A stretch of DNA of 64,000 nt from Nemertoderma westbladi (lineage: Eukaryota; Animalia; Xenacoelomorpha): positions 13,479 through 77,478 of the forward strand of contig JAUCBJ010009074.1 in assembly GCA_032718475.1 (NCBI GenBank), given 5' to 3'. The notes under the pieces are model-generated. The model did no database searches and had not been told where the DNA came from. It saw only the letters and a program-made list of their open reading frames with translations. Below, in pieces: positions 25,011 to 64,000 of the stretch. The position numbers and the translations under genes were made by a program. Within the stretch, counting starts at the first letter, position 1. Each line of letters opens with the position of its first letter.

Positions 25011-26539
25011 TGGAGTAGTTGGAAAAATAATGGGCGATTTTAAATCAAAACTAAAACCGTACTGTATTTATTCAAATTATAAGTTCCGGTAGGACTACTG
25101 TTATACATAGTTGTGTAGTAGTACAGTAGTAGTTGTAACAGCGTTTGGTTTGATTGTTAAGAAAGAAACTCTTTTATTTTTGTTATATGGAAGCTGGTTT
25201 GATTGTTATATACAGTAGTACAGGCCACCAGAAAAAGCTGATTTCATCAAATGTGATCACAAGTGAACACATTTGATCAAGTAACCTGAATGGCAGGTCA
25301 GGTCACTACACTAATTCAATGGCGAGTTATCTTCTAGAGCCCACAGCAGGAGGCTGACTTGCTGGGACTGACAAAAGCTTTGTGTGTGGTGCGCCTGTAT
25401 GTCTGATATCAGGTAGATGAGAGAGTCCCCAAGGCGTAACATTACAGATATCGCGGCACCCACCGATATACTTGAAAGACAAATTCTAGAATCAGTGGTT
25501 AACGTCCCCAGACAAGTTCTGGAATAAATCGGTGCCCATCTCAAATATTAATTATTTAATATTTGCAAATCTAATAAATCAAAATCTGTAAAATTCAGAT
25601 CCTTCAACAATTCTAGTCAATTAAGATATCGTAGCATTTACCGATATTCTTAAAAAGACAATTTTCATAGAATTAAGGATCTTGTGTCCCCAGACATGTT
25701 CTAGAATCAAAATATGTCAATTTAATTATCAAATAATAAAATTTCAGGGAATAAATTTAAATTCATGCCTTTTAATGAATTTAATAAATTGCCATTTTTA
25801 CGCAATTTATAACATTCCCAAAATTCCATTAATTAATAGATCAAGGGAGCGGAGATTTAACTTATTATGCGTATGAGTGTGCGAAAGTCTCCCAAACATA
25901 GTCAATAGCCGATAAAATTCATAAAGTCATGTATAAAACAGGACATTGACCATTAAAGAATTACTATTAAATAACATCCCAGAGCTGTATGCATTGGAAT
26001 TACCCTAATTCTACCGCTAGCTTTGCATAATGTCACCATAGCAACAACCACGCTAGAATTAGAATTGAGTTAAAAGAACAATAGACAGCTTGTCCCATTG
26101 AATAGCATAGGGAATAAATAGCGCACTGCTAGTATCCAAGGATACATGATAATAACGTGACATTCTGGAAGGCATTGACTAACGGACAAGTGACCCGAGT
26201 GTGTGTAATTTGTGACAAGTTGTGTGTGTGGTATTTGTGAGTTTATAGGCGAATGTTACTACTAAGGTGTGTTTACAGTAGCGAGTCGCAATTGTGAAAG
26301 TAACCCTAACTCTCCAGTAAGAACCTGAGGTGTATCTAAGCCTTTGGGACGGACAGTCGAGTGACTTGTGCCGGTTGTCGTTGTCGTTGTGCGGCTACGT
26401 CGTTGGCGAAAGTACAGCGGCGACGACACATCGGTGCTGAGGATCTCGCACTGTCCGGGGGCTGATTGGGGTAGGCAGCGACGCTCGCTAGCCTAAATAT
26501 AAACTCATTATAATATGGATAAACTCATATATAGCAGAT

Positions 26540-27868
26540 ATGACGGAGTTGATAGAAGATGGTCTTGGTATCGGGGAGCGATATACTCTACTTTCAAACG
26601 TTTGTTGATAGCTTGATACGCGGTGATACTAGTCCAACTACTACGAAGGATGATGGTCGTTATATCGAACCTACGATTTCCTGGAAGTAACTTACGCGTG
26701 AATTGGACTATGGAAAATTCACCGCTCGCTACACGCATTGTAATGGTATGTATATGGACTTCTTAACCATTGGCCATTCTATCGATTTACACGATACGGA
26801 CTATGTCGAACATATCCTACCCAGAGGTGTCGAAACGATAAACCAAAATTCTAATGCGAAAATCCTATTCGAAATCGACTCGAAAGAAAAGACATTAAAG
26901 AAACAAATAAAAGCGGTAACTCCAACATATATTTGGAATTCTTGATAGAAGCATTGTAACAACAAATAAATATCACCCGCGTTTCTCCTTCAAGACGTGC
27001 GTCTTTGGTATTATTACGATAAATGCCCTAGACCCAGCCAATAAACGGAAAGACATAAACATCCACGGAAACGTTGTGTTAAACACAGTTGTGTTCGTTA
27101 TATTTACTGGAGTTTCGAGCGAAACTTGTTTGACGTATCACCTATGCTCACTCGGCTCGAACGATCCTGGAGTAAACCTACGATCAGAGTCCCGGAATAC
27201 TCGGTCAAACCTCCTCATTCCTTAGTTGGACCTCAGACCTGCGATCCTGGTGGTGTCGCGGATCCTCGCGGACTGTATTCACTGTTCAAAGATCTAGTGC
27301 TACCCTAACAATTAATCGGTAACACTCCGACAGTGATTTCTAGCTAGCTGCCCATCTTACCTAGCCGGATTGTGACGCGGACACCTAATATCACTATCCA
27401 ACTGTATGGTCGTCCCCGTTTAACGCGATACAACCCTTCATCAAGGTGAAGGAGAGCGTTGTACGAAACGAGTTAAACGCTATTCTATAAAGATCAAAAA
27501 AGAAACCTGCGTTTGTTCAGATAAACGTAAGTTATAACAGTAAGTCCAATCGATAAACGAATTGGCCTTATCTCAGTTCGATTGGGAAATCTCGAATCTC
27601 TAAGAAGATATCAAGCTTAGAAAACCCTATTCTCTGCGAGAGTTTTGGACGAACGTATCCCATGACAAGCGGAGGAAAATCAGCTCGAGGAGAAGCATAT
27701 CGAAATGGATGAGACACCGACCGTAAACCCAAACCTTCTAATGCAATTGTATTGCACCCTTTACCCAGGAGTTATAGCCTTTCTAGTAAAGTGGCTCGCC
27801 CCAAAGAGAAAAGGACTCTTGCTGGCCTCGGGAAACTGCGTGAACGCCGTCCGCGCAAGAAAAACTAA
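26540..27868 (+). pseudogene. Decayed copy of the BEL accessory ORF (N-terminal ~450 codons joined to the extreme C-terminus)
   Basis: Same start context (gcagatATGac). Peptides YMDFLTIGHSIDLHDTD and IRVPEYSVKPPHS match the 59225 ORF. Many stops and frameshifts. Confidence 0.88.
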
Positions 27869-27946
27869 CTGTTTAGAGTATCTTTATGTTTTAGAAACTG
27901 TGATTTTTATATTTTATAGACTGAAAATCCCATTTTCTGGGAGCGG

Positions 27947-29189
27947 TGTAAAAGCCTTTGCTGAATTGCCCCGTTATTTTTCTTATTTTTCCATTAAAAT
28001 ACTCTGTAGTTGATTTAATAGGAGTAAGAGACCGTATTATTGCTGTATCGGTGTTTTTTAGAGGATCTAAGAGCTATTTCCTCCGTATGTGTACTGTGAA
28101 AGGCATAGTTGATGATTCTATGGCAATTCCGTGACGCAAAAGGTGATAGCTACTCTTGAACAGTAGTTACTATGACGACGGTTAACAGCTGATATTCATA
28201 CGTGTCGATTTTCTTTGTTCTACGGCGTCTCTCAGTTCAGTCAGCCAATCAGAGCATTTTTATGGCTCTTGTACAGAAATTTCCTAGAAATCACGCAATG
28301 CGTTATGGGCAGTGTTTACATTCTGTCCTGAGCCAGGAGAGAGCGGCTTGGGAATATTTTGTGCTTTTCTGTTTTAGCCTAACACTAGTAGGCTTAATTA
28401 TAAGGACATATATCCGTTATCAAACCAAACCTGACCTCACACTGGCCACTGGTTAACTGGCCCATACTCAATCAACGCAACATACCTAATCTAATATACC
28501 TGTGCATACTTTTATATTGTTATACTGCTATTTACTGTCGGTTCTTCATAATATGGTTGATGAATTATTATATTTGGAATAACGATAAATAACCCCGAAA
28601 ACCCAATATTCTTGATATACCGAAGGTAAGAGAGAAAGGTTACATATAACGATTGTGACTTATGTTAAAGTGGTTTGAAGTGAATCTAATGTTATTTGAT
28701 AGACCCTACATGATTCGGTCCGTGTTCCTTTTATATGTGACTAAAATCAGTGAAGATCGGCAGATCAGTGTGCAGTATTGTGCAGCATTGTGTATGAGTG
28801 AGACTGATAACGAAGCATTTCCTAAAGAATGCGCCATATATGTGAATTGTAACTAAGCCATATCGTTGTGAGTAGTTTAAGTCATAACTCTGTTTATATA
28901 GATAGAGCGCCACGTCCTAAAGGAACTGTTAATATTCCCCGAAGGTGAATAATATTGTCAGAGATTATATAATACTGTCAGTCGAATAATACATTAGGCT
29001 TACATAGCAATACGATTAAGCCGTCGAACCCAATCTCCCGGGTATATCCAGCGGGTGAATGATCGCGCACCGATTGGTTTCGACTAGTGTAGTGAATCAA
29101 ATACTTGTCAGAGGCTAAAAGTGATTTATTATCTAGAAGACATCCTAATTTGGCGGGTTAAACTGCTAAAGGTCTGAAAGCGCGAAAAC
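27947..29189 (+). repeat. LTR of the degenerate BEL/Pao copy (~1.2 kb)
   Basis: Starts TGTAAAAGCC after the PPT and is homologous to 50201-51379. Homology ends at 'aaggtctgaaagcgcgaaaac'. Confidence 0.8.
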
Positions 29190-34994: not shown

Positions 34995-36041
34995 TTTGAA
35001 CTAGCAGTCATTACATTGATATTTCTTTAGTAACTTGTGCGCTATGTAGCCAGCTACACAAACAGTAGCCTCGGTTGTCGCCTCATCAACAGCATAAACA
35101 AAGTCGATAATATCGATATTCTCTAATAGATCAGTGAAATCGAAATCCTGAGATCGATCTACAATAACGTCATCTAAACAAATATTCTTCTTTAGCATAG
35201 ATTTAACACGAATGATATTTTCCGACCTAATAACTTCTAATAAGCCCACCAAAAAACGACCCCCACTCATTTGCCTGTACTTTGAATAGTGGCGTTCTAA
35301 TGGATCTGTTTGAAGTCGTCCTGTAAGAACAAATTCATAATCATCGCTATATAACAACTCAAAACACAAGTTGGCCATTGATCGGTTTGTTTGTATTAGT
35401 GCTTGCCGTGTCGCCGAAGTAAGCAGTTTATTCGAGGGAATTATTTCAATATCCAACCAATCAGCAAACTCCCTGAGAAATTCAAACTTTCCATCACTTT
35501 TAATCATTGCGTTTCCAATAGGAATTTTACGATACCGTTCTTTGGCGTTGACGACTAACCACATACAGGAGCAACGTTTTGCTTCTTGTTGCCAAAATGA
35601 GTGACACTGTAGGTTAATTTAGGAGCCAATCGCAAAGAGCTTAGGATAACAGAATCGATTTCCTCTACTCGGTAAAGGAGGGACCATTTTACTTTTCCTG
35701 TGGGAACAAACAGTAAAGGTTTTCTTGTCAAGTTTGTAAACAAAGGGTTTTCCAATATTAAATAGTTTCTGATTGGCTAAACTATTTCGAACATTTTTAA
35801 TAAGATGAATGGGATCATATATAAAGAATATGTTCTTGTTAGAAATAGATGCCATAGAACAAAATTTATCACCTGGTTTCTTTGATGAAAGACTATTTTT
35901 TTTTTTTTTTTTTTTTATAGCTACACCCCCCTGTCGGGGTAAAAGTTTTATTTAATAATTAATTGATAAAATATAAATAAAAATAAAAATTAATATAACT
36001 CAATAAAAGTAATTTATAATAGCGTATCCCAGTAATATATG

Positions 36042-38819: not shown

Positions 38820-38899
38820 AATTGGTTGATTATTGCATCCTCCAGTAGGGGGAGCTGCCACGCTGTGGGGGGCTGTAGGATCGCCTGGCGAGGTGGCAG

Positions 38900-39335
38900 A
38901 CGCGCCATTGGGCGCGAGTTGGGCGCTGAATCCAGGGGGGACCACGGCGGTGGGCGTGGGCACACGTTGGGGGTTGAGTCCGGGGGGGGCCACGGCGGTG
39001 GGCGCACGTAGGGCGCTGAGTCCCGTAGGGACCGTTGCGACGGGCGTGGGCACATGTTGGGCGCTGAGTCCGGGAGGGACTGCGGCGGTGGGCGCACGTA
39101 GGGCGCTGAGTCTGGTAGGGACCGCTGCGACGGGCGTGGGCACACGTTGGGCGCTGAGTCCGGGAGTGACTGCGGCGGTGGGCGCACGTAGGGCGCTGAG
39201 TCCGGTAGGGACCGCTGCGACGGGCGTGGGCACACGTTGGGCGCTGAGTCCGGGATGGACTGCGGAGGTGGGCACGCGTTGGGCGTTGAGTCCGGGAGGG
39301 ACCACGATGGTGGGCGCTTGTTGGGGGCTGAGTTC
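38900..39335. repeat. GC-rich tandem repeat (alternating ~57/63-bp units) between ORF1 and ORF2
   Basis: Recurrent 'gggcgctgagtcc...ggtgggcgcacgta' and 'gggcgtgggcacacgttgg' with a ~120-bp period. Confidence 0.9.
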
Positions 39336-39344
39336 TGTTGCGAG

Positions 39345-40256
39345 TCAGTCTTGATGATCGACAGTATTTACTGCACCATTGGTGGTTCTTGTCATTGGTT
39401 GTTCTGGGCAATAATTCTGTTCTTGTCTGAAGTTCCTCGCATCAGAGCGGCGAGTGCTATCACGCGGTCGTAGGCCAAATAATTCTCGCTCTGCGTTGGT
39501 TAAGCGGTAATTCTTGATGGTGATTCCCGTTTCCCAGAGGTTGGGATCCATCAATGCCTCCCTGTTTTCCTGTGTGCAGATGAGGTGAAATGCTCGAGTT
39601 TCCGATCCTTGGTACACAGGTAACGGGATGATGTCATCATATGGAATCTGTTCACCTTGGAGGTAGTCGGCGATGTCATTTTCAGACACTGCAGTGTCAA
39701 CGCGCCCTATATGTATGTGTGCTTTTCTCTGGACGTGAGCAGGGCGCTCCGTGGTCGTAGAGCTAGGGGCAGCCTTTATTGGGCCACCAACCTTACTTCC
39801 CCGAGTGACCTGTCGTGGTCGGGAATTACTTTGCCGATCGAGGTTTGTGGAACTCTGCCGAAAGGCCGTATTAGCTTCCGGGTTAGAGGGGGCCTCACTA
39901 ATTAGCCTGGCGTTCGGCGTGTCCGGGTTATCCCAGGAACTTCCGTTTCCCCGTCTCGTATTCCTCCTGACTTTGGTCCAGCTGTTTTCCATTTGTTCGG
40001 TTGGTGGTTGGCTTTTCCGATCACTGATTACCTTGTCGTCTTTCAGGTGTCGAATTAGTTCGTTTTTGGAGTCTATCGATTCCTGCTTAGCCTCTGCTAA
40101 TTTGTCCATCGCGCGGGTGTACATGCAGGATAGTTGTCGTAGGAGTTCACCCACCTTTTTCTCCTGATCGTTTGTAACAGACTTTTTCGTCTTGAAAATT
40201 CCCACCAGATGTAATACATCTTGTTGCACATTTAAGAATGCTTCTGCCATAATCAA
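39345..40256 (-). CDS. LINE ORF1-like protein (coiled coil, linker, RRM-like C-terminal domain)
   Basis: 303-aa ORF upstream of ORF2 inside the TSD-bounded element. C-terminal IHIGRVDTAVSENDIADYL...AFHL...LMDPNLWETGITIKNY is typical of LINE ORF1. Confidence 0.85.
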   Translation of the reverse strand: MIMAEAFLNVQQDVLHLVGIFKTKKSVTNDQEKKVGELLRQLSCMYTRAMDKLAEAKQESIDSKNELIRHLKDDKVISDRKSQPPTEQMENSWTKVRRNTRRGNGSSWDNPDTPNARLISEAPSNPEANTAFRQSSTNLDRQSNSRPRQVTRGSKVGGPIKAAPSSTTTERPAHVQRKAHIHIGRVDTAVSENDIADYLQGEQIPYDDIIPLPVYQGSETRAFHLICTQENREALMDPNLWETGITIKNYRLTNAERELFGLRPRDSTRRSDARNFRQEQNYCPEQPMTRTTNGAVNTVDHQD

Positions 40257-40462
40257 GTAGCGATTAAAATCAATGAATAGTGATAAAATCAGATAAAATC
40301 AAATCAATTTATTTGAGTTTACAGCAGTAGAGTCAAATTACAAAGTTGATACTTAGGCTTTTAAAAAAAACTCATTAAACTAGAGCTTATTAAAAATTTA
40401 AAATACAACAATTAATTAGCTAGTATATAATTAGCTAGTAATTAGATGAAAGACTATTAAAT

Positions 40463-46537: not shown

Positions 46538-47795
46538 TAATCGGCCTGCTGCATTGAAACTGGTCATTGAGATGCTGGCTTAACAAAAATATTTTGCTAC
46601 CACCATGCAATCCACAATTGACAAGCCCAATGCAGGGTACATTAAGAATGCTATGCCGGCGTATCAACAAAGATTCAAGCGTATCTACGAAGATTCACCG
46701 CCACAACTCCCTATCCCCCATGACTTTCGCGAGACTATTCGCATCTACAAAACCAATGTCCTTTAAGAGGCGTCTCACAAAAGTCATGTGCTGTCCACCA
46801 TGCATATTTTCTCCATGGGGCTGCCAAAGCACAAGATTATGCACAGGCTGGTCCTCACTGCGAAAACAATATCCTGCAAAGCGGAGTGTTCAAGTGTCAA
46901 GCTTGCGGGAACCAAATGAGACACCTCCAATGTTATCTACTGTCTGGTTGGAGATGTGTGCATTGTACTTGACACAATGCACCCGGCGTAGCATTCTTGT
47001 GAATGTGCCATCCAGAGATTTGGTGTCCTCAGCAGTTAGAGCCCAGCATGGACTCCCATGGTACTGGAACTACTGCTGCTCTAAATAATCGGACGTTAAG
47101 TTTCCGATTAATTCTTGGTGACTTCCAAATCTTGGAAAGCCTATTCAAGGCTGCCCATGCCTTCCCTTACGTATTCGAAGGTCCTCACCTGACTTCCGGA
47201 TCCATGATCCCAGGTAACAGAAGTCTTCCACTTGCTCAAGCATACCATCCTTTGAGCTTATGCTCATCCGGTCAGAGACTTGCTGAGGACTTTCAAAGTT
47301 AACTGTCAAAATTTTCTAATGAGCTGAGGAGCCGTTCGGCTCCTTCTAGTGATTATGAGAGTACTCCTAAGTCATCAGCAAAGTCTATATCAGTTAGGTA
47401 CTTGGCAGGATTTTCTCGACTTCTGGAGCCAGTAGGTGGAGTTACCATCACCTCAACATCATTATGATGATCTAACGACATTAGTAGAACATAGTCAACC
47501 ACAATTATGAACAAGAATGCCGCAAGTGTGTCACCCTGGAGGACTCCCCATAACATTTCGAATGGTTCTGTGTCACCGTCTTCGAACCATCTTACTAATC
47601 TGATTGCTGCAATAATTCCATCAGGAATCTAATATAATGAAAGTATGCTGAACATACGTGAGCGAGAGACTGAATCAAAGGGCTTGACGAAGTCAACAAA
47701 GCTAACAGCCAGATGTCTGTCTTTCTTTTTGACAACTCTTCAATTATTCTTCTAAGAGAAAAAATGGGCTCACATGGTCGCACGACCTTTATACG
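46538..47795 (-). mobile_element. Degenerate RTE LINE fragment (same family)
   Basis: Matches 31275-32520 with deletions; GVLQGDTLAAFLF and DIDFADD. Confidence 0.88.
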
Positions 47796-47804
47796 GAACC
47801 TAAA

Positions 47805-48304
47805 TCATCTCCAGCTACACTCACAACTGATTGAACATTGTTATTTACATTCACTTCTGTTTGAACATCTCCAGCTATACTCACTACCGGTTGAACATCT
47901 TCCGCTACACACACTACCGGTTGAACATATCCAGTTACACTCACTACCAGTTGAACATCTCCAGTTACATTCAGTACTGGTTGAACATCTTCAGCTACAC
48001 TCACTACCGGTTGAACATATCTAGCTACACTCACTACCGGTTGAACATCTCCCGCTACACACACTACCGGTTGAACATCTGCAGTTACTCTCACTACCAG
48101 TTGAACATCTTCAGTTACACTCAGTACTGGTTGAACATCGTCAGCTACACTCACTACCGGTTGAACATCTCCAGCTACTCTCACTACCGGTTGAACATCT
48201 TCAGTTACACTCACTACCAGTTAAAAATCTCCAGTTACACTCAGTACTGGTTAAACATCTTCAGCTGCACTCACTACTGGTTGAACATCTTCAGCTACAC
48301 TCAC
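47805..48304. repeat. 30-bp minisatellite (~16 copies); two more units at ~46478-46535
   Basis: Unit ctcactaccggttgaacatctccagctaca. Confidence 0.95.
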
Positions 48305-48394
48305 CTAGAGGATATCTACAGTTCTATAAAGTAACTTGTAAATGGACCAGTAGACTTGTAAATAATTTTGTACTCAAAGTATGCAGTCTCATGG

Positions 48395-50200: not shown

Positions 50201-51379
50201 TGTAAAGGCTTTTGCGGAATTAGCTGGTTATTTTCCCCGCAAAGTACTCTGTAGTTGTTTTAACGGACATAAAAAGCCGTTTCCTTACTGCACCGGTGTT
50301 TTAGTGGACATAAAAAGCCATTTCTTCTGTATGTGTACTTTAGCGGACATAACTCGCGATTTTATGTCGCAATAAGCCAAATACTCTAAACATCGGAACT
50401 CAGATGACGACATCTATCAGCTGTGTCCACGTGTAACATTTCTTTGTACTTTGTTCGTTCTTTGTTCGGTCGACCAATCAGAGCGGTTTTCACTCTGTGT
50501 TGGAGATTGTATACAGAAACTCATGCAATTCAGTCAGTGTGTGTATTTTTCCTGATGCCAGAAGACCGGCTTTGGAATTTCTGTGTTTCAGGCTTTAGCC
50601 AAACATTAGTAGGCTTGATCATAGAAACGTATAACTGTTATCTCACACTGCATATCACGCAACATCAGACTCAAATCAAATCATATTGTTTACCACACCG
50701 CATTATTTTACTGCTATTTACTGTCGGTTATTAATTATATCAGTTGATGGAATATTATTATATTTGGATAATATCGATAAATAATCATAAAACCCCCAAT
50801 CTTCTTGATATACTGAAGGTAAGAGACAGGTTACATATAGCAATTGCGACTTACATTATATTGGTTTTGGAGTGAATCTAATGCTATTTCATAGGAACTA
50901 CATGTGTCGGTTGCTGTTCTCTTTATATGTGACTAAAATTGGTGAAGGTCGGCAGATCGGTGTGCAGCATTGTGCGGTAGTGTGCATGATTGTGACAGAT
51001 AACAAAGCATCTCCTAAAGAATGCGCTTTATACGTGAATCAATAGCCATCCCGTTGTGTTTAGTGTAAGTCATAACTCTGTTTACATACTTAGAGCGCCA
51101 TGTCCTAAAGGAACTGTTAATATTTCCCGAAAGTGAATAATATTTGTCAGAGATTATATATTAACAATCAATCGAATAATACAGTAGGCCTACATCACAA
51201 TAAGGTCAGAGCTTCCGAATCCAGTCTCCCGGGTATATCCAGCGGGTGAATGGTCGCGCATAGGCTGACTTCGGCTAATGTAGTGTATCAAATACTCGTC
51301 ATAGGCTAAAGTCGATTTATAATCTAAAAGACACCTAAATTTGGCAGGTTAAACTGCTAAAGGTCTGAAAGCACGAACA
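50201..51379 (+). repeat. 5' LTR (~1.18 kb, TG...CA)
   Basis: Matches 63557-64000. The end is inferred from loss of homology with the 27947 copy at 'gcacgaaca'. Confidence 0.8.
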
Positions 51380-53294
51380 ATAACAGTTATTGCTTCTGTA
51401 TTGCACGTAGGCAATAAAGGGCAAAAGTACCGGTCGACCGGTAACTAGTAGGCCTGACTACCTAACCACCCGGACCGGTACTTACAGCAGTACAGGTACA
51501 GCAGTATTATTCGATTTTGATAATTATATACCGGTAGGTCTTGATATTTAATCAGGGACGGCCGCCCTGGTTTTTTATTGAGATTTTACTTATTTCTGTC
51601 AGTTTTATTTATCTGTAAGTTGATGTTGAGCAGAAGACGTGTAAGCCTGCTCAGATTGTACAGGTAATTTGTAGGCTGGACTGACTATTGTCTGACTGTT
51701 GTTAAGTCTGAAGAGATTACAGTGTGTGTAGAGTGTATGTCCGATAAAGTACTAGTTAGGAAAGTGGGTGGCATCCAGTGCTGTAAGGTAAATCCCCCTG
51801 AAAGAATAAGTCGTACTACTCGGTTAGAACGCATACTAACTAACCATTTCGGAGTCTGCATATACTGTGGTTTATTTAGGCTTGATAGTAGTCTGCCAGC
51901 GTTTGGTCTGTATTTTGTTTATATAGTCTGTAAGGGTAGCGTAATATTTATTATTCAGAGTTTATGCGATTATTCGCAACATTCATACCCCAAGTTTATT
52001 CCTACAGTAATTGTGCTTGTTATATATACCGTTATAGTTAAATTAACCCCGGTACTACATCAGGGCTGTTTGGCGTAGGTAAAGACTGGAGATTATATGC
52101 TTTGGTCACTCCGGCAGATACCGTGGTTCTTTTAGCTGTACAAGTATTTCTAACTGCTGGTTATTTGTTGTATAAGTACTTGTACCTAATTTAGGGTTTA
52201 GTGTACAGTGCTTTCCGAAGGTAATTAGTGTGTAGGCAGTATATTTGTGTTGTAAAGTGGTTAATAGGCACGTTGGATCTGGTAGGCCGCGGTAATTAAC
52301 TTCTAGGTAGGAACACTCCGTGATACATAATGTAGTACTTATAGCGATACGGCTATAAGTCGTCAGACGGTGGTATTTTTCCTATCTGGACAACGCAGTA
52401 TATTTACTACTGCTTTGTTATTTTCAAATACCGTAGAATCCTGTCTGTTTGTAATAACCAGATATTCTAACCCTTTGTTAGGCTGGTTTGTAGACTTCTT
52501 GTAAAATTACCCTAAAAAATTCGTACGTGTAATTTTTGTGTTTATTTAGAGATTGTAATCTCACCCCGAATTGTACGTAATTTGTAGTATTAAGTAACTT
52601 AGGTAAATTAGAATTATTTGTTTTAGTGTCCAACAAATAGTACTTCACTGAGAGCGTACAGCTTCTGTGCGGTGACTCTTTCCCAGAAATAATAACATTT
52701 ATTTCAAATATTGACAAAAACCCATTATAGGGGTATATATATTATAAATCAACTCAAACCGATTTATAAAATAGTAGGCCTGTCATACAACAATTAGGTC
52801 TTAATATCAGTTGGACTACTGCTTAAATAACGGTAATAAGGTAAAGTAAAGTAACCAAGTAACCCCTAAAATTCAGAAATTCAATTATTCTAAAATAATT
52901 GATATACCGGTATTTACAATAGGCTTATTATATTTATTTCTATAAATTTGCGCTGAAATTATATACCGGTATTCTGTAATTAATTCTAGTCTGTAATTAT
53001 ACTTATATATACTATAAGTGTAAGCTGTATACCGGTATTCACGATAGGCTTATTATATACTTATATATTTGCGCTGAAATTACATACCGGTATTCTGTGA
53101 CAAACCTAGTCTGTAATAATACTTATACATATACTATAAGTGTATACCGGTATTCTAATATATTATATATATATATATCACGTTACACTGAGTAACAGTA
53201 TCGGTAATTAATTACTAGGCTAACAGTTGATACTGAATTACTAGACTTGCTTTAACTGTAATATAGCAGTAGGCATTCAACTGTACAAACAAAC

Positions 53295-56200
53295 ATGTCT
53301 GACACAAAGCAAAACCTGTCAGACAGTCTCCTAGATACAACCATCTGTGATCCAGACAGGAGTGTGGAACGTGTGAGACCAAAGTTCAACTCACCTCCTA
53401 CTGTAAGAAAGATCATCCCTCCAGTAGTAGTATCAGACCCTAGGCTAGTCCAACAACGTAGGTCTATCATAGGCACTCGAGCTCAGGTCAAGCGGGACCA
53501 AGAGGCAGCTGTTGAACAGCAGCAACACTCGAGCCGAGAACTTATTTCTCAGCGGCCCGACAGCTCCAGTAGTGCGGATACTGTAGAGCTGACACCCGAG
53601 CGCGGAGCAAAGATGGCAGATGCGGTTTATTCGGATCCCCTTCTCATCCTTCCTGCAGCCGTACTCACTAGGGTATTGATTGCAGTGGAGGAACACCAGA
53701 TTGATTGGGCGAGAAGTAAGCGATTGACCAAGGATAGTTATGCGGGATACACAAGGGAAGAACTGAAGTCTATTGTCGAGTCGCAATGGAACTTCCCCGG
53801 ACCCGGACTCCCGTTTGACTTATCGGAAGCTGCCTGGGAAGACATACACAGGATGGGAGTGACAAAAGACACCAGTGATCCAGCTGTATGGAAGAGTTCG
53901 GCAGCAGGATACGTACAGGGATTCTTCAGCTCTTTGGAGCGATTAGAGGAACAACTGTTTCGACAACCCCAAGGACCTCAAGAGCAGGGAGAGCTGCTTT
54001 ATCAAGTTAGAGAAAGAATTCTAAGAATCAGACTAATCCTATCAGCCTTTGAGGAAGCTTCGAAAAGAAGACAAGACACGTCGTTGCAAGTTGCTGTAAA
54101 GACTTGGTTCCAGCGGGTGAGTCTCAAGGTTCAAGGAACGGCCCAGTGGAAATCTCAGCTGGCTGAGCGCTCAACCCATGGAGAATCAACAGACGCTACC
54201 TTTTCTCAAGTGGAAAGCCAAGCGACAGCAGAGAAACCGCATAAGAGGGATGCTATTGACATCTATCTGTCAGACTATCAACGCTTTCTAGGTGATGAAG
54301 AGTTGAGGAGAAGGCTGGATGGACTTCGCCCTAATAGTGAAGGAGCCAAGCTTGTGTTGGACGCAATAGATGTGGAAATGTTAGCTGCGAACCAAGCTAA
54401 ATTTGATGAAAGCATCCGCATCGCTAAGGTTCAAGAAGAACAAGTAAAGAAAAAACGTATAGAAGACAGAAAGACAGCAGCAGCGGCAGCGGCAGAGGCA
54501 GAAACGGAAAGAAAGGCAGCAGAAGTGGAAAAGAAAGCGGCAATGGCAGCGGCAGAAGCGGAAAGAAAAACGGCCGAAGCGGAAAGAAAGGCAGCAGAAG
54601 TGGAAAAGAAAGCAGCAATGGCAGTGGCAGAAGCAGAAAGAAAAGCGGCAGAAGCAGAAAGAAAAGCGGCAGTGGCAGAAGCAGAACGGAGGGCATCTGA
54701 AGAGACAACCCAACTAGAGTTGGAAAATCTTCAAGAGAGGCAAGACAACTTCAATAAACAGTTAACAGCTAGTCAAATGCAGATGATGAGTCGATCTACT
54801 CCCAAACGACAGGGATTTACATCCTCTGATGAAGGCGATACCACCGATCCTGAAGGCGGAGGAAATAGATCTCGTCTAAGTAGGCGTAGAAGAATGTCCC
54901 ACCGTCAGAAATTGCCTGATTTGCCCCCAGCTGTTAGAAGGCAACTAGCTAGCACAGACTTAGGTAGTACAGAACCCACAGACCAAATAATTAAAATAGA
55001 AAGACTCCCTACTATAGTAGATGAGCCTGAAATAATTAGGCCTGTTCTCGAAGCCACCCCTTCGGTGATAGAGACACCTGTACTCCCAGAACCTACCTCT
55101 AAATTCCCTTTGCACAGTACTAAACTACCTGTGCCCAGTAGGACTGTTCCCGAGTCCGAACCCGTCCTGGACGCCGAGCGAGATATCAAGAATTTATCGC
55201 CCGTCGTCTCTCGTCTGCCCGCTACTATGTTGGCGGCTCCCGCTTCGGCGGTCGAGTGGGTGGATGAGGGGCGGCGAGGGATGAATCTCCTGCTCGGGCA
55301 GATGCAGGAGACTGTTCATCAGTTTAAGGGAACAGTAAGGGAAAGTAGGTTAGAGTTGCAAGAGGTGCAGCAGAGTATCGCATTAGAACGCGACAAATTA
55401 GTAAATATCCAAAGGGGTATACCACCAACCCCGGTAACAATGTGTCAACCTGTTAGGTCTGAAGTATTTCATGTGCAAGGTGTGGAGCCTACACACATCT
55501 ATACTGCTAGTGAAGTAGAAACTCCTATAGTAAACCCTATTAAGGGTAATTATAAACCTGTTGACAATGATATTCCATATAGACCTGATAATAATCCGAG
55601 AAATTTATATACCGATAACTCGATATTAAATAATACGATGGACCAAGAAAGTTTTACGCGTCAAATGGCTAGAACCGAAGCCCGTCAAGCGGTAAAGGTG
55701 GGAGAGATCGTCAAGTTCAATGGAGATGAGATGAAATGGTTACCTTTTAATGAATATTACAAAGATAACATACAGAACTCTGTGCTATCTAACGGAGAGA
55801 AACTTAGATTCCTCATCGAGTGCTTGGAAGGATCTCCCAAGTTAATGGCGTTAAAGTTTATTGGACATCCAGATGGATTAAGACAAGTTTGGGATACACT
55901 AAACATCAGGTATGGTAATAGGAATAACATAGCTAGGTATTTGTATGCAAAATTGGTAGCCCCCCGAAAGTTCATTAGCAGCGGGATTATAGAGTTTTCT
56001 GATGAGATTCAGGAGATCTGTAGACAATTAGATTGGCTATGTAAGTCTCATGAATATCAGAGTTCTATGGTTATTGGAGCCGTGGCCTCTACTTTACCGA
56101 AGGGTGGAGTAGGTACATGCTGGGATAAGAAAGTGTTATATATGATGGAACAACAACGACGAGACCCTACCATGGCTGATCTCATGTCATTCTTAGATGG

Positions 56201-57953
56201 AGAAGTAAAATTACAGCTCCTAAAGCAGTCCAGAGAGAAGACACCGGAAAATAAGGTAAGTGAGAAACCCGTTTCTAGGAGAAAAGTAACACCAGTGTGT
56301 TATACCGACGACGGCGAAAGCCAGGCTTCTCAAGAAGAGGACAGCAGGAAAGACACTGAAAGATCTTATTATGTCAACAAAATGCCTAAAGACGTAAGTA
56401 AATTCAAGTCTCGAACCAATGACAGGAGAGAACAGGTAAGAAAAACTCCTCCTACGTCTCCTAAGAGAATTCATGTAAGAAAGCCCGAAGAAAGAACTAG
56501 TGTGCACAACGTTACTCAAAATAAGGTAAGTAACATCAAACCGAAATGTGCGCTGTGTGACGGGCCCCACCGTTTGAATGTGTGTGATGAATTCCTAAAG
56601 AAATCATTAAAGGATAGACGGGAAGTCATGTGGGATAAGCGGTTGACTAAATTCATAAACAACCGACCCTTGGCGGAGAAAAGAATTGCTCAACTACATC
56701 GACGCCTTACGGCAAATGCTTCAGCTAAAGAAATGTATCAGACTCAGTTGAAGAAATTTATTAACAAGGGATATGCGGAGCGAGTACCGGAAGAAACACC
56801 TATAACTGAGAGAACGTACTATTTAACACATCATTACGTTCCCAAACTCGGTAAACCCCATGAAGTAAGGGTAGTATTTGACGGCTCCGCCGAGGCAGAA
56901 TTACCTAGGGAACGAGTAAGCTTCTATGAACCACCTTTTACTAATACCGGTGTAGATTTATTTGGCCCTATTGAAGTATATCGTGCTAGGACTATAGTGA
57001 AGAGATGGTGTGTCATCTTTGTTTGTATGACTTGTAGAGCTATCCATCTCGATATGGTGAACGATTTATCTACCAACAGCTTCCTATTGAGCTTACGACG
57101 ACAGATCGCTCGCTTTGGAACTAGTAACACGATGAGATCTGATAAGGGAACAAACTTCATTGGTGCCAACAATGAAATCAAGGCTTACGTCAAAGATTGG
57201 AACCAAAGACAGGTGGACGATCAGCTAAGGGTAACAGCGTCTAGCTGGACCTTCAACGCCGCCTACGCCCCTTGGTGGGGAGGAAGTTGGGAGAGATTAA
57301 TCAGGAGCATGAAGACCACATTTCACTTTATAGTGCCGTGCCGCGCGTATCTCACCGACGAACTTTTGCGGACGTTAATGGAGGAAATCGCCGCCTATCT
57401 CAACGAGAGACCGCTTATGCCAGTCTCATCGAGTCCCGATTCCCTGGAAGTGCTAACACCCGTGCACTTCTTGCTGAAGAAACCTGTAGCCATGCTCCCA
57501 CGATCGGAAATCACAGACGGAGACGAATACTGCCGGCAAACTTGGCAACTTATGCAGTTGTTATCCCGTCATTTCGCTGACCATTTCGAAAAACATTATC
57601 TGCCCACGCTACAACTTCGAACTAAGTGGTTTGCGCAGCAAGAAAACGTCAGCGCTGGAGACATGGTCCTTATTGTGGATTCAGATCTTCCACGTAAGCG
57701 GTGGCAGACAGGTCGTATCATCGAGACTCACATCTCGGATGATGGTTTGGTGCGATCGGTAGAACTCGTCGTCATGCGACGTAACTTTAAGAAACCGGGA
57801 ATTGTCTTCGAGACACAGCAGCTCAATCGCCCAGTTGGCCGTTTATGTTCACTGGAAAGAGACCGAGAACTCTCCGGAAACTATGGAAGGCAAGATACTC
57901 TTCCCACGACCACCTCCCTAATCCAACAAACATCTAGGGACTCCCCAGCGTAA
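53295..57953 (+). CDS. BEL/Pao gag-pol with two in-frame internal deletions (Gag + short RT stub + integrase core and C-terminus)
   Basis: Gag core KFNGDEMKWLPF...EKLRFLIECLEG and knuckle CALCDGPHRLNVC; RT stub YYLTHHYV...VRVVFDGSA; integrase TGVDLFGP, RAIHLD, SDKGTNF, PWWGGSWERLI, LNERPL, LTPVHFL, W.TGRI...DGLVRSV. Confidence 0.93.
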   Translation: MSDTKQNLSDSLLDTTICDPDRSVERVRPKFNSPPTVRKIIPPVVVSDPRLVQQRRSIIGTRAQVKRDQEAAVEQQQHSSRELISQRPDSSSSADTVELTPERGAKMADAVYSDPLLILPAAVLTRVLIAVEEHQIDWARSKRLTKDSYAGYTREELKSIVESQWNFPGPGLPFDLSEAAWEDIHRMGVTKDTSDPAVWKSSAAGYVQGFFSSLERLEEQLFRQPQGPQEQGELLYQVRERILRIRLILSAFEEASKRRQDTSLQVAVKTWFQRVSLKVQGTAQWKSQLAERSTHGESTDATFSQVESQATAEKPHKRDAIDIYLSDYQRFLGDEELRRRLDGLRPNSEGAKLVLDAIDVEMLAANQAKFDESIRIAKVQEEQVKKKRIEDRKTAAAAAAEAETERKAAEVEKKAAMAAAEAERKTAEAERKAAEVEKKAAMAVAEAERKAAEAERKAAVAEAERRASEETTQLELENLQERQDNFNKQLTASQMQMMSRSTPKRQGFTSSDEGDTTDPEGGGNRSRLSRRRRMSHRQKLPDLPPAVRRQLASTDLGSTEPTDQIIKIERLPTIVDEPEIIRPVLEATPSVIETPVLPEPTSKFPLHSTKLPVPSRTVPESEPVLDAERDIKNLSPVVSRLPATMLAAPASAVEWVDEGRRGMNLLLGQMQETVHQFKGTVRESRLELQEVQQSIALERDKLVNIQRGIPPTPVTMCQPVRSEVFHVQGVEPTHIYTASEVETPIVNPIKGNYKPVDNDIPYRPDNNPRNLYTDNSILNNTMDQESFTRQMARTEARQAVKVGEIVKFNGDEMKWLPFNEYYKDNIQNSVLSNGEKLRFLIECLEGSPKLMALKFIGHPDGLRQVWDTLNIRYGNRNNIARYLYAKLVAPRKFISSGIIEFSDEIQEICRQLDWLCKSHEYQSSMVIGAVASTLPKGGVGTCWDKKVLYMMEQQRRDPTMADLMSFLDGEVKLQLLKQSREKTPENKVSEKPVSRRKVTPVCYTDDGESQASQEEDSRKDTERSYYVNKMPKDVSKFKSRTNDRREQVRKTPPTSPKRIHVRKPEERTSVHNVTQNKVSNIKPKCALCDGPHRLNVCDEFLKKSLKDRREVMWDKRLTKFINNRPLAEKRIAQLHRRLTANASAKEMYQTQLKKFINKGYAERVPEETPITERTYYLTHHYVPKLGKPHEVRVVFDGSAEAELPRERVSFYEPPFTNTGVDLFGPIEVYRARTIVKRWCVIFVCMTCRAIHLDMVNDLSTNSFLLSLRRQIARFGTSNTMRSDKGTNFIGANNEIKAYVKDWNQRQVDDQLRVTASSWTFNAAYAPWWGGSWERLIRSMKTTFHFIVPCRAYLTDELLRTLMEEIAAYLNERPLMPVSSSPDSLEVLTPVHFLLKKPVAMLPRSEITDGDEYCRQTWQLMQLLSRHFADHFEKHYLPTLQLRTKWFAQQENVSAGDMVLIVDSDLPRKRWQTGRIIETHISDDGLVRSVELVVMRRNFKKPGIVFETQQLNRPVGRLCSLERDRELSGNYGRQDTLPTTTSLIQQTSRDSPA
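54470..54700 (+). repeat. Coding repeat in Gag (AAAEAERK-type coiled coil)
   Basis: Repeated gcagaagcggaaagaaaggca-like units. Confidence 0.85.
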
Positions 57954-59224
57954 CAACGTCTGGAGTGGGTGTGTGACTATATTATTTATACTTGTTTCAT
58001 TATTTTATATTTATGTATGTATTATTATGTAATTTTATTATAATCGTTTTCTTTAATTTTATTTAGTAGAATGTTATTTTAGCGATTATTTAGTAGAATA
58101 GTGCAATATATATTAGTGTTTATTACTTAATAACTTATATATTATATATCTAGAGCGACAGCGAGAAATAATTCTTTTTATCTTTTCTTACTGTCCGTAT
58201 TACATTACAAATACGTAACTACAGTAAGATGAAATATCCGTACTTATTAAAGTACAATAAAGCTCCTACTATATTCAAGTATTATTGGTAAAGTAGGGTA
58301 TTAGGAATGCAAAATTCAGATCCTCGTGTCTCGGCTAAACCAAGCTCTGGGTAGACCTTGGAAACGACTTGCCTCTTCTCACTGACATTGCTTCTTGCGA
58401 TATTGCTCTCATACCGTATATTAAATAATACATATAGTAGCATGATGTCCTTTTAACAGTAGCGTACAACGCAAATAAATCTGTTAAACCCTTTGACCAT
58501 CTGCAATTCTAGTCGATTAAGATATCGCGGCACCCACCGAGAGTGCGAGAAGTACGTTAGTGTGCGAGAATCTCCAATATATAGTCAATAGCCGATAAAA
58601 TTCATAAAATCATGTATAAAGGGGATATTGACAATTAAAGAATTACTATTAAATAGCATCCCAGATCTGTATGCATGAGAATTACCCTAATTCTACTGCT
58701 AGCTTTCCATAATGTCACCATAGCAACAACCACGCTAGAATTAGAAGTGAGTTAAAAGAACAATAGAAAGCTTGCCCCATTGAATAGCATAGGGAATAAA
58801 TAGCACACTGCTAGTATCCAAGGATACATAATAATAACGTGGCATTCTGGAAGGCACTTGACTAACGGACAAATGGCCCGAATGTGTACAATTTGTGACA
58901 GTTGTGTGGAATTTGTGCGTTTATAGGTGAATGTTACTACTAAAGTGTGTTTACAGTAGCGAAAGTAGCCTTGTAGTATTGTGAAAGTAGCCCTAACTCT
59001 GCAGCGAGAACCTGAAGTAAATCTAAGCCTTTGGGACGGACAGTGGAGTGACTTGTGCCGGTTATCGTTGTCGTTGTGTAGCTACTACGTTGGCGAAAAC
59101 ACAGCGACGACGGTACATCGGCGCTGAGGATCTTGCACTGTCCGGGGGCAGAGAGGGGTAGGCAGCGACGCCCGCTAGCCTTAATATAAACTCATTATAA
59201 TATTGATAAACTCATATAGCAGAT

Positions 59225-62200
59225 ATGACTGAGTTGATAGAAGATGATCTTGGTATCAGGGAGCGATATACTCTACCTTTACAAGCGTTTGTTGATAGCT
59301 TGATACGCGGCGACGCTGGTCCAACTACTACGGAGGACGATGGTCGTTATATCGAACCACCAATGTCCCAGGAGCAACTTACGCGTGAATTGGATTATAG
59401 AAAATTCACCGCTCACTATATGCATCGTAATGGTACATATATGGACTTCTTAACTACTGGCCATCCTATCGATTTACACGATACGGACGATGTAGACACC
59501 GAAAGGGAAATGGTTTTATTTAAATATCATACCCAGCGGAGTCGGCACGATAAACCGAGAATAGAACACGAGAATTCTATTCGAAACCGACTCGAAAGGG
59601 AAGACGTTGAAGAGCCGGATAAACGCAGCGACTTCAACGATTATCTGGAATTCCTGAGAGAAACATATCTCAATATTGCCAGTCAACAAAATCTAGAAAC
59701 TCGATATCCTCAAGTTATACATCATGACCCTATGATAGAACTCAAACGACTCTATTTCACTATGATGTATCTTACCGCCGATCGACCGATACCTGTCGTC
59801 CCAGATAGCTTCGAACAGATGGAGGAATATTGTAAAACTGGAGAACGATCACCCGCGTTTCCCCTGCAGGACGTGCGTCTTTGGTATTACTGTGACGAAT
59901 GCCCTAGACCCAATCAGCAAACAGAAAGACATAAACATCCGCGGAGACGTTGCGCTAAACACAGTTTTACACGATATACTTATGGGAGTTTCGAGCGAAA
60001 CCTGTTCGACGTATCACCTACGCTCGCTCGACTCAAACGATCCTTGAATAAACCAATGATCAGAGTTCCGGAATACTCGGTCAGACCTCCTCATTCCTCA
60101 GTGAGACCTCAAACGCTTGACCCTAATAGTATAATGGATCCCCCTGAACTGTACTCACTATTTAAAGATCTTGTATTACCCGATCAGTTGATCGGTGGCA
60201 CTCCGATAGTGGGCTCACTAGATATTCGCCAACCCTACCTAGCCGGATTAGGACGCGGTCATCTAATATCGCCGTTTAACCCGTACAACCGTCCAGGCTT
60301 AACCCCGATACAACCCGTTACCGAAGTCGAAGAGAGCGTTGTATGAAACGCGTTAGACGCTATTCGGCAGAAAATCGGAAAAGGAACTTACGATTGTTTA
60401 GAGAAATGCAAATTGCAGCAACAAGTCCAAGCGGTGAAAGAATTAGCTTTACCCCAGTTTAATAGAGAAATCCAGAATCTCGAGGAGGACATCGAACGTG
60501 GACGAACCTACTCTTTACAAGAGTTCCTAGACGAGCGTTTACAACAAGAAGCGGAGGAAAATCAGCTCGAAGAGAAACACATAGAAATGGATGACAGAGA
60601 AGAAGCAGCTTTAGCCCAGCCAGAAGCTCAAATTCTTATGACGGATCTCTATTCTAAAACCATCATCCATCCTTCGATGGTTCCCCATTTCGGAGACAAA
60701 CTCTTCGCCACGGCACAGCCTCAACCGGTTGATATCAACCTAAGATCTCGAGATCTTATCGCTGACGCTCCCATGTTGCAACGTCCGCCAATCGAGGCCG
60801 CTCGTGTCGATGGTATACTCGTTGAACCTCCGGACAATAGAGCGGATCTTGTCCGGCGTATGGTACACGATGTTAACATGCGCGCTAGACCTTTACCGAA
60901 CTCGTTTTATGGGATCAAAGATCACCCTTATTACGTCAATCTAACGCAATATTACATGGTAAAACCGGAAGATCCTACACATAGTCTGAGGTTTCTACCA
61001 CTAATAAATCCTCTCGATCTTGTCGAACTCGAACAACTGCAGAAACATCTGGATCAGTTAGTTAAAGTAAACTCATTTCGAAAACCCTATAATGTTTCCA
61101 GGATAGAGAAAGAGACTATACCTCCGTATAATCTTGATGGATTCATCAAAACTCGATAAGTACACTGGAATCTCGACGTGTTATTCGAGGAGGAAAGAAT
61201 ACAACGATATGGAGATGTAGAGACATATACTACACAATATTTAAAGTATAGAGATCTACCTAATGCTAGCGAATGCGCTACCTTGTGGCATCCAGTGGGA
61301 ATGACTCTGGAAAACGCCACTAAAGAGTGGAATGAGACTCTTAACGTTATCGAGATGTATGGAGTTGTCACTTACGATAACGAAGGTAGCGTTCCAGTTG
61401 GAGAACTGGGAACTACGCGAATGATACATATACGAGGACTAGCTGGTTCTACCCACGTATTTACTCGAGTGTGTTCCGATGTGATTGATTATTCTTTTGA
61501 GACCCTTACCGAGATACAAAAGAAACTCCGACATGGACAATTCGAACTCGCGCAGCGTTACGTCACCGACACCGAGCGCAAACCAGCCATGGGTATCGAT
61601 GGATCGATGTTACCCCAACCCGTGCTCGAGATGTTGTTTAACGAAAGAATCCTTAAAATCGGCTCAGCTGTTTATGGAGATCTCCAAAACGACTTTCGGA
61701 ACATGGAGAACATTCCATACCCTTTCGTTGATACTCAGCTGATTGCTCCCTGGGTAGAAGGCCGAGGTTTCTTCCGCACTATGTATGCAAATACACCCAG
61801 CGGCATTACTAAAGTACAACGAACCTCCATCGGACATCTTGCCTTTCAAGAATACGGATGGAATTTCAAGGTTGGAAATCCTATCAACTACCAACAAGTA
61901 TATGGAGATCATTATTCTCGATTATACTTTGATGGACCATTGACCGCACCTGGCGCCGTTTATAGCTTTATGAGTGTTCCACTTCGTCCCTCCTTAGCTA
62001 TATACACGATCTTTGAAAACGCCGCACTTGCCGGTTGGCTCGCCGATGTGTGCAGTCGTACCATAAGCGCCCATCCCTTAATACTTGGAACCAAACTCGC
62101 CAAGCTAGATGAACACAATAAATTCATCCGCTTCTAATGTTTCAGGCGCTTTTTGACTCTGTTCCGTAACGTTGATAGTCAGTTCAAGGACCGCGCTCTG

Positions 62201-63478
62201 ACCAAACTCAGCCTAAGAGACTCAGCTGCGGAGAAGTTAGACGGCGCGGGATTCGCCCTTTTCAAGGACGTTTGTATACAGAACTTCCATTCATCTGTTA
62301 TACAAAGACCTCGAATACCCACGGGTTATTCTGTCGTGGAAGTTCAGACAGTGGGTTCGCTTGCGGAGACAGCCGCACCTATCTCAACTATGCAATTGGA
62401 AGACGAACCAATATGCTTAGAATCTGAGGAGATTCAACCTACAGCGCCCCGGAGCAGCGATAACGACTACGTCTTGGAATGGTATCAAGGTCCACAATGT
62501 CTCACCGCATACGATTATCGGCACGCCAACTATGTTTCTCGAAAGCGTTGCCGATTATGCGCATCGAGAGATCATTTCACCCCTATGGACTCAGACGTAC
62601 CCTGCTCCTATTTCCATGAACAACCGATGATGGAGATCTATTGTGCGTATTGCAGACTCAATAACTCGCACATTTTTGCAGTCTGCCCCCAATTTATGAC
62701 TCAATGCCACCACTGTCAACTTAAAGGACATGCCAGTTTTAATTGCCCTTTTAACCGCGATCTGGAAAGCGTAGATGAGATGATTACCCTGCGCTACATC
62801 CGAGCTTGGGAAGCGAACGCGGATTTACATTGTGAGTCACGCCATCGCTATTACCCTGGACGCGCCTACGAAGGAGTTTACGCGTTCCATCCTTATCTAT
62901 TCGCGTCTGTTGAACAAAAAACACGCACACCGAGTTACGAACTAATGAAGCGTGTTGGTGAGTGTATTTCCACCAAATTTGTTCGAAAATATCTCAGGAA
63001 CGTCAATCCTAACGATATTAATTCATACCATTTGATCAATTTCATCCGTCAAGACCCTGAGTATGGCGATTTATTTATCAACTCGCACCCTGAGTTACAG
63101 GAAGTATCTCGACGGCCCTACGAATATCGAGCCCGAGAACGCGAGCTGGAAAGAACCATTAAACCGAGGAAGTTTCTCACCACTCACGGTCCACCTACCG
63201 CTATTGTCCAGACGACTCGTCAGGGACCAGTAGGAGCTGCTGTCCTAAGACGCGCCCTAAAGGCCGTTAGACCTCGCTCCACTGAAGTTGATATCGATCA
63301 ACCAGGTACCTCGACCGGCGGATACACCGATCGTAATCCTAAACCTTCTGATGCAATTGTATTGCACCCTTCACCCAGGAGTTATAGCCCTCCTAGTAAA
63401 GTGGCTCGCCCCAAAGAGAAAAGGACTCTTGCTAGCCTCAAAAAACTGCGTAAACGCCGTCCGCGTAAGAAAGACTAA
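59225..63478 (+). pseudogene. Single ~1417-codon accessory gene with three in-frame stops: DEDD (WRN/EXD-like) 3'-5' exonuclease domain + CCHC zinc knuckles + basic tail
   Basis: ORFs 59225, 60413, 61178 and 62153 are all in one frame, separated only by TGA (60344), TAA (61157) and TAA (62135). The paralog has CGA at the first stop. Motifs: VVTYDNEG; LPQPVLEMLFNERILKIGSAVYGD; FVDTQ; CAYCRLNNSHIFAVC; CHHCQLKGHASFNC; KKLRKRRPRKKD. Confidence 0.8.
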
Positions 63479-63546
63479 CTGTTTAGAGTATTTTTATATT
63501 TTAGAAACTGTGATTTTTTATATTTTATAGAATTAAATCCCATTTT

Positions 63547-63556
63547 CTGGGAGCGG
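63547..63556 (+). promoter_or_regulatory. Short polypurine-tract-like primer site
   Basis: ctgggagcgg directly precedes the 3' LTR TGT and is identical in the degenerate copy (27937-27946). Confidence 0.7.
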
Positions 63557-64000
63557 TGTAAAGGCTTTTGCGGAATTAGCTGGTTATTTTCCCCGCAAAG
63601 TACTCTGTAGTTGTTTTAACGGACATAAAAAGCCGTTTCCTTACTGTACCGGTGTTTTAGTGGACATAAAAAGCCATTTCTTCTGTATGTGTACTTTAGC
63701 GGACATAACTAGCGATTTTATGTCGCAATAAGCCAAATACTCTAAACATCGGAACTCAGATGACGACATCTATCAGCTGTGTCCACGTGTAACATTTCTT
63801 TGTTCTTTGTTCGTTCTTTGTTCGGTCGACCAATCAGAGCGGTTTTCACTCTGTGTTGGAGATTGTATACAGAAACTCATGCAATTCAGTCAGTGTGTGT
63901 ATTTTTCCTGATGCCAGAAGACCGGCTTTGGAATTTCTGTGTTTCAGGCTTTAGCCAAACATTAGTAGGCTTGATCATAGAAACGTATAACTGTTATCTC
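63557..64000 (+). repeat. 3' LTR (truncated by window end)
   Basis: 441 of 444 bases identical to 50201-50644 by manual comparison. Confidence 0.97.

Follow-up and report, generated by a model that had tools for sequence, protein, structure and literature searches.

In the BEL/Pao retrotransposons roo, Tas and the nematode Cer elements, the extra 3' open reading frame (ORF) that follows the integrase encodes an env glycoprotein. The element described here lies in a 64,000-nucleotide stretch of contig JAUCBJ010009074.1 from Nemertoderma westbladi, the whole of which is called the window below. It shares with roo, Tas and Cer the extra coding capacity past the integrase, but its additional gene, ORF2, is not env. 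Our preferred interpretation, held with modest confidence, is that ORF2 is an accessory gene of a BEL/Pao family, maintained under purifying selection and likely to encode an active RNase D-type 3'-5' exoribonuclease, with CCHC (Cys-Cys-His-Cys) knuckles that would hold the RNA. Few counter-defence genes are known in animal long terminal repeat (LTR) retrotransposons, and the ORF2 family provides a concrete candidate: an enzyme, encoded by the element, that would act on the 3' ends of RNA.

The closest described systems are the DEDDy ORF3s of bdelloid rotifers, which occur in the LTR retrotransposons Juno and Vesta and in Athena/Terminon elements (PMC5408684; PMC6431247). Activity is not shown in the available text of PMC5408684, which the accessible parts of PMC6431247 and PMC5718144 restate. 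By the published description, these are non-env ORFs that follow pol and precede the 3' LTR; they are RNase D-like and DEDDy, retain the acidic residues apart from one Asp-to-Glu change and have no membrane helix (PMC5408684), features that ORF2 appears to have as well. In contrast, the host element here belongs to BEL/Pao, and ORF2 has 1417 codons, a 644-residue N-terminal part, three CCHC knuckles and a basic tail; the available text of PMC5408684 leaves CCHC unmentioned and notes a Cys-His-Cys motif in Vesta2/5. The catalytic motif reads D-E-D-E in ORF2 and is given as 'DEED' for the bdelloid proteins (PMC5408684), and selection on the exonuclease is shown for the ORF2 family but not, in the accessible accounts, for the ORF3s. 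The bdelloid sequences did not turn up among the matches of protein searches with ORF2. Since DEDDy ORF3s of LTR retrotransposons were already published (PMC5408684, available text), the novelty implied by an earlier reading of this locus, made from the sequence alone, was overrated. A DEDDy cargo is not a new category; what this case adds is the BEL/Pao superfamily, the CCHC knuckles and the selection on the nuclease core. The literature, in mostly open-access coverage without supplements and with Repbase, Dfam and GyDB outside its scope, yielded no DEDDy or DEDDy-CCHC ORF in BEL/Pao. Malik et al. (2000) reportedly described an exonuclease-like domain in some nematode Cer elements, which would lower the novelty.

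A second point of comparison is TbRND of Trypanosoma brucei, in which, according to the available text, an RNase D domain is accompanied by CCHC fingers that hold the RNA upstream of the trimmed end (PMC7797062). Like ORF2 it combines an RNase D-type exonuclease, a linker and several CCHC motifs; unlike ORF2 it is described as a cellular mitochondrial enzyme with a canonical DEDD set and four fingers (PMC7797062). No sequence match was found between ORF2 and the PDB entries of TbRND, and the likeness is therefore one of build, not of demonstrated descent.

Three in-frame stops divide ORF2 into four segments, the third of which is likely an RNase D-like DEDDy exonuclease domain, as judged by profile comparisons. 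The NCBIfam model TIGR01388 (RNase D) matches it with E 0.0034 over the ExoII-DTQ stretch. A hidden Markov model (HMM) built for the purpose from 15 bacterial RNase D/Pol A exonucleases (13 of 30 listed plasmid matches and two E. coli domains) scored the segment at 11.7 bits; the highest-scoring of 1000 shuffled sequences reached 3.4, and the other ORF2 segments fell below zero or were not reported. One relative was recovered from 1.84 billion protein representatives, the 648-residue protein P0002 (E 2e-6), which the same HMM scored at 14.7 bits across ExoI-ExoII-DTQ. A two-sequence profile of ORF2 and P0002 was aligned to the reference profile with an hhalign probability of 90%, and the ESM Atlas linked the ORF2 segment to PF01612 clusters at 0.92, with the best named matches agreeing in 10 of 10 cases. 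The RNase D/PF01612 profile similarities of the segment lie below the curated cut-offs. A PHROGs exonuclease match (E 0.14) was too weak and was not used. The sequence-only reading had placed the domain in the WRN/EXD1/EXD2/mut-7/Egalitarian group; an RNase D/WRN-type DEDDy assignment is upheld by the profiles, whereas no close sequence match to the named members was found. EXD1, EXD2, the WRN exonuclease, mut-7 (Nibbler) and Egalitarian have the same PF01612-type domain (EXD1, mut-7 and WRN appear in the available text of PMC5408684).

All DEDDy positions appear to be filled in ORF2 (D718, E720, D819, Y927 and E931). Of these, the ExoII residue D819 can be assigned securely; it aligns with D85 of E. 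coli RNase D both pairwise and by profile. ExoIII had earlier been regarded as not clearly conserved, from which it was argued that the domain could be dead. However, a Y927-x3-E931 motif is present at 62003-62017, just past the 61300-62000 segment named in that reading. In P0002 the best place for the reference block PL-x3-Q-x2-Y-x3-D is PLCHDQLYYIYCE; in ORF2 it matches PLRPSLAIYTIFE, which is second best when ORF2 is scored alone. The joint score of the two proteins in this register is 17.0, and the next best of 78 registers reaches -4.2. Both proteins thus have a PL-x6-Y-x3-E motif in which the Tyr is kept and a Glu replaces the last Asp. Since ORF2 has this counterpart of ExoIII, the dead-enzyme argument is not supported: four acids and the Tyr can be placed, and their codons are absent from the 40 listed differences between copies described below. 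For ExoI, the pair D718/E720, which faces D62/E64 of P0002 in one alignment, is the most likely choice, and in this register ExoI and ExoII are probably separated by an insertion of 30-40 residues. Taken on sequence, we consider catalytic activity probable.

P0002 is 28% identical to ORF2 over 159 exonuclease residues, matches it in the knuckles as well and has the same order of exonuclease, linker and three knuckles. The sequence-only reading had counted two or three CCHC knuckles in ORF2; a pattern scan finds three, an atypical Cx2Cx4Hx9C, a Cx2Cx5Hx4C and a canonical Cx2Cx4Hx4C. The family model zf-CCHC_3 matches them with E 0.0011, under its curated cut-off, and they align with the knuckles of P0002, which in turn match the HIV-1 nucleocapsid at 1e-4. 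In the ESM Atlas the best look-alikes of P0002 were Euglenozoan proteins with PF01612 and zf-CCHC (0.86), which is a lead only. Word-indexed protein searches with ORF2 residues 640-1240 (near length) and 680-1230 (shorter) returned nothing, and the two-sequence profile recovered P0002 alone. We could not detect an ORF2 relative by locus searches in viral contigs, bacterial genomes and metagenomes, or a match to P0002 by tblastn against phages. One metagenome match was rejected, being a histidine-kinase-like ORF matched by chance.

Copies of the family allow the selection on ORF2 to be assessed. Four of seven listed public runs, drawn from four studies, were compared with the region, and each row of the comparison is a difference between the contigs and this copy. 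Run X5, perhaps RNA and labelled as a different organism, was set aside as evidence of expression. In the exonuclease core (61340-62040), 35 of 40 differences are synonymous, where a share of 0.23-0.30 is expected; these are the 40 best-supported of 124 rows, to which all statements on the core refer. The dN/dS across copies, proposed earlier as a check, comes to a rough omega of 0.04-0.06, which is indicative only, because it draws on the best-supported rows and the window may itself derive from one of the runs. Within the same 40 the six motif codons are untouched, there is no indel, and three of the five amino-acid changes fall in residues 764-774, in the probable insertion. The exonuclease core is under strong purifying selection among copies. 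Over ORF2 as a whole, taking the best 40 of 1212 rows, third positions account for 15 of the 19 differences shared among copies and for 4 of the 15 that only this copy has (34 rows; four outside the ORF and two at stops were left out).

It is difficult to square these counts with a host gene that was captured by chance and has since been carried along without selection. Such a gene would fit the decay of this copy, with its three stops and private differences over all codon positions, and the mild third-position excess (102/239) of a decayed second copy in the window. However, 35 of the 40 differences among copies are silent, and P0002 was the one match among the 1.84 billion representatives, none being a close cellular homolog. 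Neutral carriage is largely refuted by the selection signal, and we give it hardly any credence.

Other results weigh against the interpretation of ORF2 as a selected, active exoribonuclease. Pfam gave no exonuclease match for the ORF2 segment, its match for P0002 had an E value of just 0.2, and PDB sequence searches with the exonuclease part, TbRND included, gave chance matches and no DEDD match. The Atlas match has 153 of 256 features in common, below the 170 typical within a family. Two AlphaFold2 models, with no alignment to build on, had a mean pLDDT (predicted local distance difference test) of 30 and 29, and the fold is therefore not shown by structure. Glu takes the place of the final Asp, and the D718/E720 register came third in an ungapped scan, with a different MAFFT placement in two alignments. 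In addition, P0002 was compared as a protein only, the selection count uses the best-supported rows, and the expression and substrate of ORF2 are inferred from its sequence.

Some of these points would suit a pseudonuclease, which would retain the fold but, instead of cutting, serve as an adaptor or decoy by binding the 3' ends of RNA or host factors of the PIWI-interacting RNA (piRNA) pathway, like EXD1 or Maelstrom. The Glu, the uncertain ExoI register and the long insertion speak for it; an EXD1-like cluster was the second Atlas match of P0002, although at only 0.77, and inactive DEDD derivatives function in piRNA pathways according to the available text of PMC5408684. Against this, four acids and the Tyr are in place both in ORF2 and in a protein only 28% identical to it, and the motif codons are not among the listed differences. 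We regard a pseudonuclease as doubtful.

The extent of ORF2 bears on what the nuclease is part of. In its frame there are three stops, compared with 69 and 90 in the other forward frames and 74 ± 8 (minimum 51) in 1000 base shuffles. Two of the three, at 60344 and 62135, are lesions of this copy, because most of the contig depth carries another base there in all four runs (in run X1, 38,829 of 41,292 and 55,884 of 55,957). The view that there was originally a single ORF of about 1417 codons is borne out at these two stops; the third, at 61157, is not among the best 40 of the 1212 rows. If that stop were family-wide, ORF2 would be two genes, the exonuclease-knuckle part being a separate protein of 650-770 residues like P0002, which starts at about the start of the third segment. 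However, the first Met after 61157 is 47 codons on (61301), the listed differences in between (61219 and 61222) are both at third positions, and the four segments all lie in one frame, and we consider two genes quite improbable. The three stops exceed the ~0.5-0.7 expected from the divergence of the LTRs (P 0.015-0.03), which suggests that ORF2 began decaying before the last move of this copy.

Much of the sequence-only description of the gene was accurate. ORF2 does lie between the integrase/DUF5641 ORF, which ends at 57953, and the 3' LTR at 63557, and the motifs VVTYDNEG, LPQPV..GSAVYGD and FVDTQ can be read in it, along with the knuckles and the basic tail. The tail may be a nuclear signal, judging from its composition. 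It was also correct that the gene does not look like env: the highest 19-residue Kyte-Doolittle mean is 1.19, giving no membrane helix by hydropathy, and Pfam has no glycoprotein family match for ORF2 (no dedicated signal-peptide predictor was used).

As for function, the ORF2 messenger might be its own or be spliced from the LTR (a donor-like site is at 50816, and an AG precedes the ATG). The knuckles and the basic tail would bind single-stranded RNA, which the nuclease would trim 3'-to-5', to the benefit of the element. We infer an RNA rather than a DNA substrate from the nearest profile, which is that of RNase D, from the RNA binding of knuckles in general and from the matching build of TbRND. 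More tentatively, the target may be 3' ends that play a part in host defence against the element, either host-added tails on element RNA or silencing small RNAs. A bolder proposal, unlikely as a whole, is that ORF2 encodes a large, nuclear, trans-acting silencing suppressor in which the D-E-D-E exonuclease is active and, with the three knuckles, destroys or mis-trims small RNAs or strips host tails; this would have allowed the very high copy number of the family and its deleted dependants, and ORF2 and P0002 would represent an unnamed lineage of mobile exonuclease-knuckle proteins.

Action in trans is likely by itself, and fits two observations: derivatives exist in which the exonuclease and knuckles are deleted, and a copy without reverse transcriptase (RT) let ORF2 decay while its ORF1 stayed open. 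The derivatives include the decayed second copy, an older copy in the same window that had been missed earlier and is without exonuclease and knuckles. Its deletion joint recurs in runs X1 and X3; contigs join 60591 to 63324, and contigs joining 59592 to 62398 also occur. Only joints were used here, since summed contig depth, which was higher at the ends of the region than in the middle, is not copy number. In run X1 alone 41,796 contigs fit 57900-64000, and the family is therefore large and diverse.

A different use of an active nuclease would be in replication, where it would be packaged via the knuckles and trim the primer, the genomic RNA end or the cDNA ends. The knuckles resemble nucleocapsid, and DEDDy enzymes can act on single-stranded DNA, as stated in the available text of PMC5408684. 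The primer of this element may need processing, because what follows the inferred end of the LTR is not a tRNA-type site but an 11-base stretch complementary to part of the LTR. Yet exonuclease-deleted derivatives exist (although supply in trans is conceivable), most BEL/Pao elements are generally known to replicate without such a gene, and self-priming, as in Tf1, depends on cleavage close to the 5' end rather than on 3' trimming. A replication role is improbable, and we retain trimming of RNA 3' ends to the benefit of the element as the working interpretation. The features are collected in Table 1.

Table 1. Features of the element carrying ORF2 and of its decayed second copy, in window coordinates
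Feature	Position	Strand	Remarks
5' LTR	50201..51379	+	Starts with TG; end inferred (match to second copy stops at 51377, then next CA)
ORF1	53295..57953	+	Gag (DUF1759), one zinc knuckle, RT start, integrase core, DUF5641; single open frame
Spacer	57954..59224	+	AT-rich; closed in all three forward frames (25-35 stops per frame); AG just before ORF2 ATG
ORF2 accessory gene	59225..63478	+	1417 codons; broken here by stops 60344, 61157 and 62135
ORF2 N-terminal part	59225..61156	+	644 codons; no Pfam match; CxxC..H..C..H-like cluster at 59891; acidic Gln-rich stretch at residues 396-465
Predicted DEDDy 3'-5' exonuclease domain	61340..62070	+	ExoI D718/E720 (61376, 61382; register tentative), ExoII D819 (61679), DTQ (61730), ExoIII Y927/E931 (62003-62017)
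Three CCHC-type knuckles	62549..62746	+	62549-62605 atypical; 62642-62686; 62705-62746 canonical
ORF2 basic tail	63095..63475	+	32 K/R and 12 D/E in 127 residues; ends in KKLRKRRPRKKD
Polypurine-tract-like site	63549..63556	+	Directly before 3' LTR; from sequence
3' LTR	63557..64000	+	Cut by window end
Decayed second copy	25876..29186	+	Spacer, first ~457 ORF2 codons, deletion of 60595-63320, ORF2 tail, LTR; blastn 74-85%

The element is young by the similarity of its LTRs, with three differences in 444 comparable bases. Both LTRs begin with TG and a polypurine tract precedes the 3' LTR, as in BEL/Pao elements; the 3' LTR terminus and the target-site duplication fall beyond the window end. ORF1 matches DUF1759 (Pao-type Gag; 1.7e-10) and DUF5641 (integrase C-terminal; 2.3e-20) in Pfam and contains an integrase core, and the element is therefore BEL/Pao-derived. 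By its motifs, ORF1 has its knuckle at 56547, the RT start at 56871 and the integrase at 56901-57300; between the first RT motif and the integrase core lie 10 residues, and the distance from the Gag knuckle to the pre-RT stretch is 37 residues. Family-profile searches gave no RT, protease or RNase H match for ORF1, and PDB sequences gave no match. This copy is without the protease, RNase H and most of the RT by which a BEL/Pao element is recognized, and also without the integrase zinc finger. Since gaps of only 10 and 37 residues are left between the flanking motifs, the protease, RT and RNase H were lost in frame, and this copy is a non-autonomous derivative with internal deletions. Even with these two large losses, one of the protease and one of the RT-RNase H, the Gag-integrase fusion encoded by ORF1 is open across 1552 codons.

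Right behind ORF1, at 57960-57975, is a purine-rich stretch followed by TGT, at the usual polypurine tract/LTR place of a plain BEL/Pao element. It is possibly a relic from before ORF2 was added, or a central polypurine tract; the sequence after it has no match to the present LTR. We rejected a nested insertion, in which a BEL element together with its own LTRs would sit within a second element, as the spacer has no repeat in common with the 5' region. At the other end, the leader from the LTR to the Gag start (50700-53260) has about 1.9 kb of closed, AT-rich sequence and a duplication of ~120 bases near 52903-53131. No TGG-starting tRNA site follows the inferred 5' LTR end. The 11 bases at 51380-51390 pair exactly with LTR-internal 50631-50641, and 4 of 1800 leader positions do equally well. 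The pairing fits self-priming, with three reservations: the stretch is near-palindromic, the end of the LTR was placed by inference, and the LTR site has another sequence in the decayed second copy.

Elsewhere in the window, positions 1-20000 are a satellite array of ~416-base units in 46-48 copies, with a higher-order pattern of 416/368/509. Judged by translation, three non-LTR retrotransposon-like RT ORFs are found at 31299-33299 (-), 36042-40298 (-) and 40461-43190 (+), and the element at 36042-40298 (-) has two long open ORFs. P-element/THAP-type transposase-like fragments, also judged by translation, lie at 34036-35951 (-), broken up by the adjoining non-LTR element. A minisatellite of 30-base units at 47746-48364 gives rise to several overlapping false ORFs.

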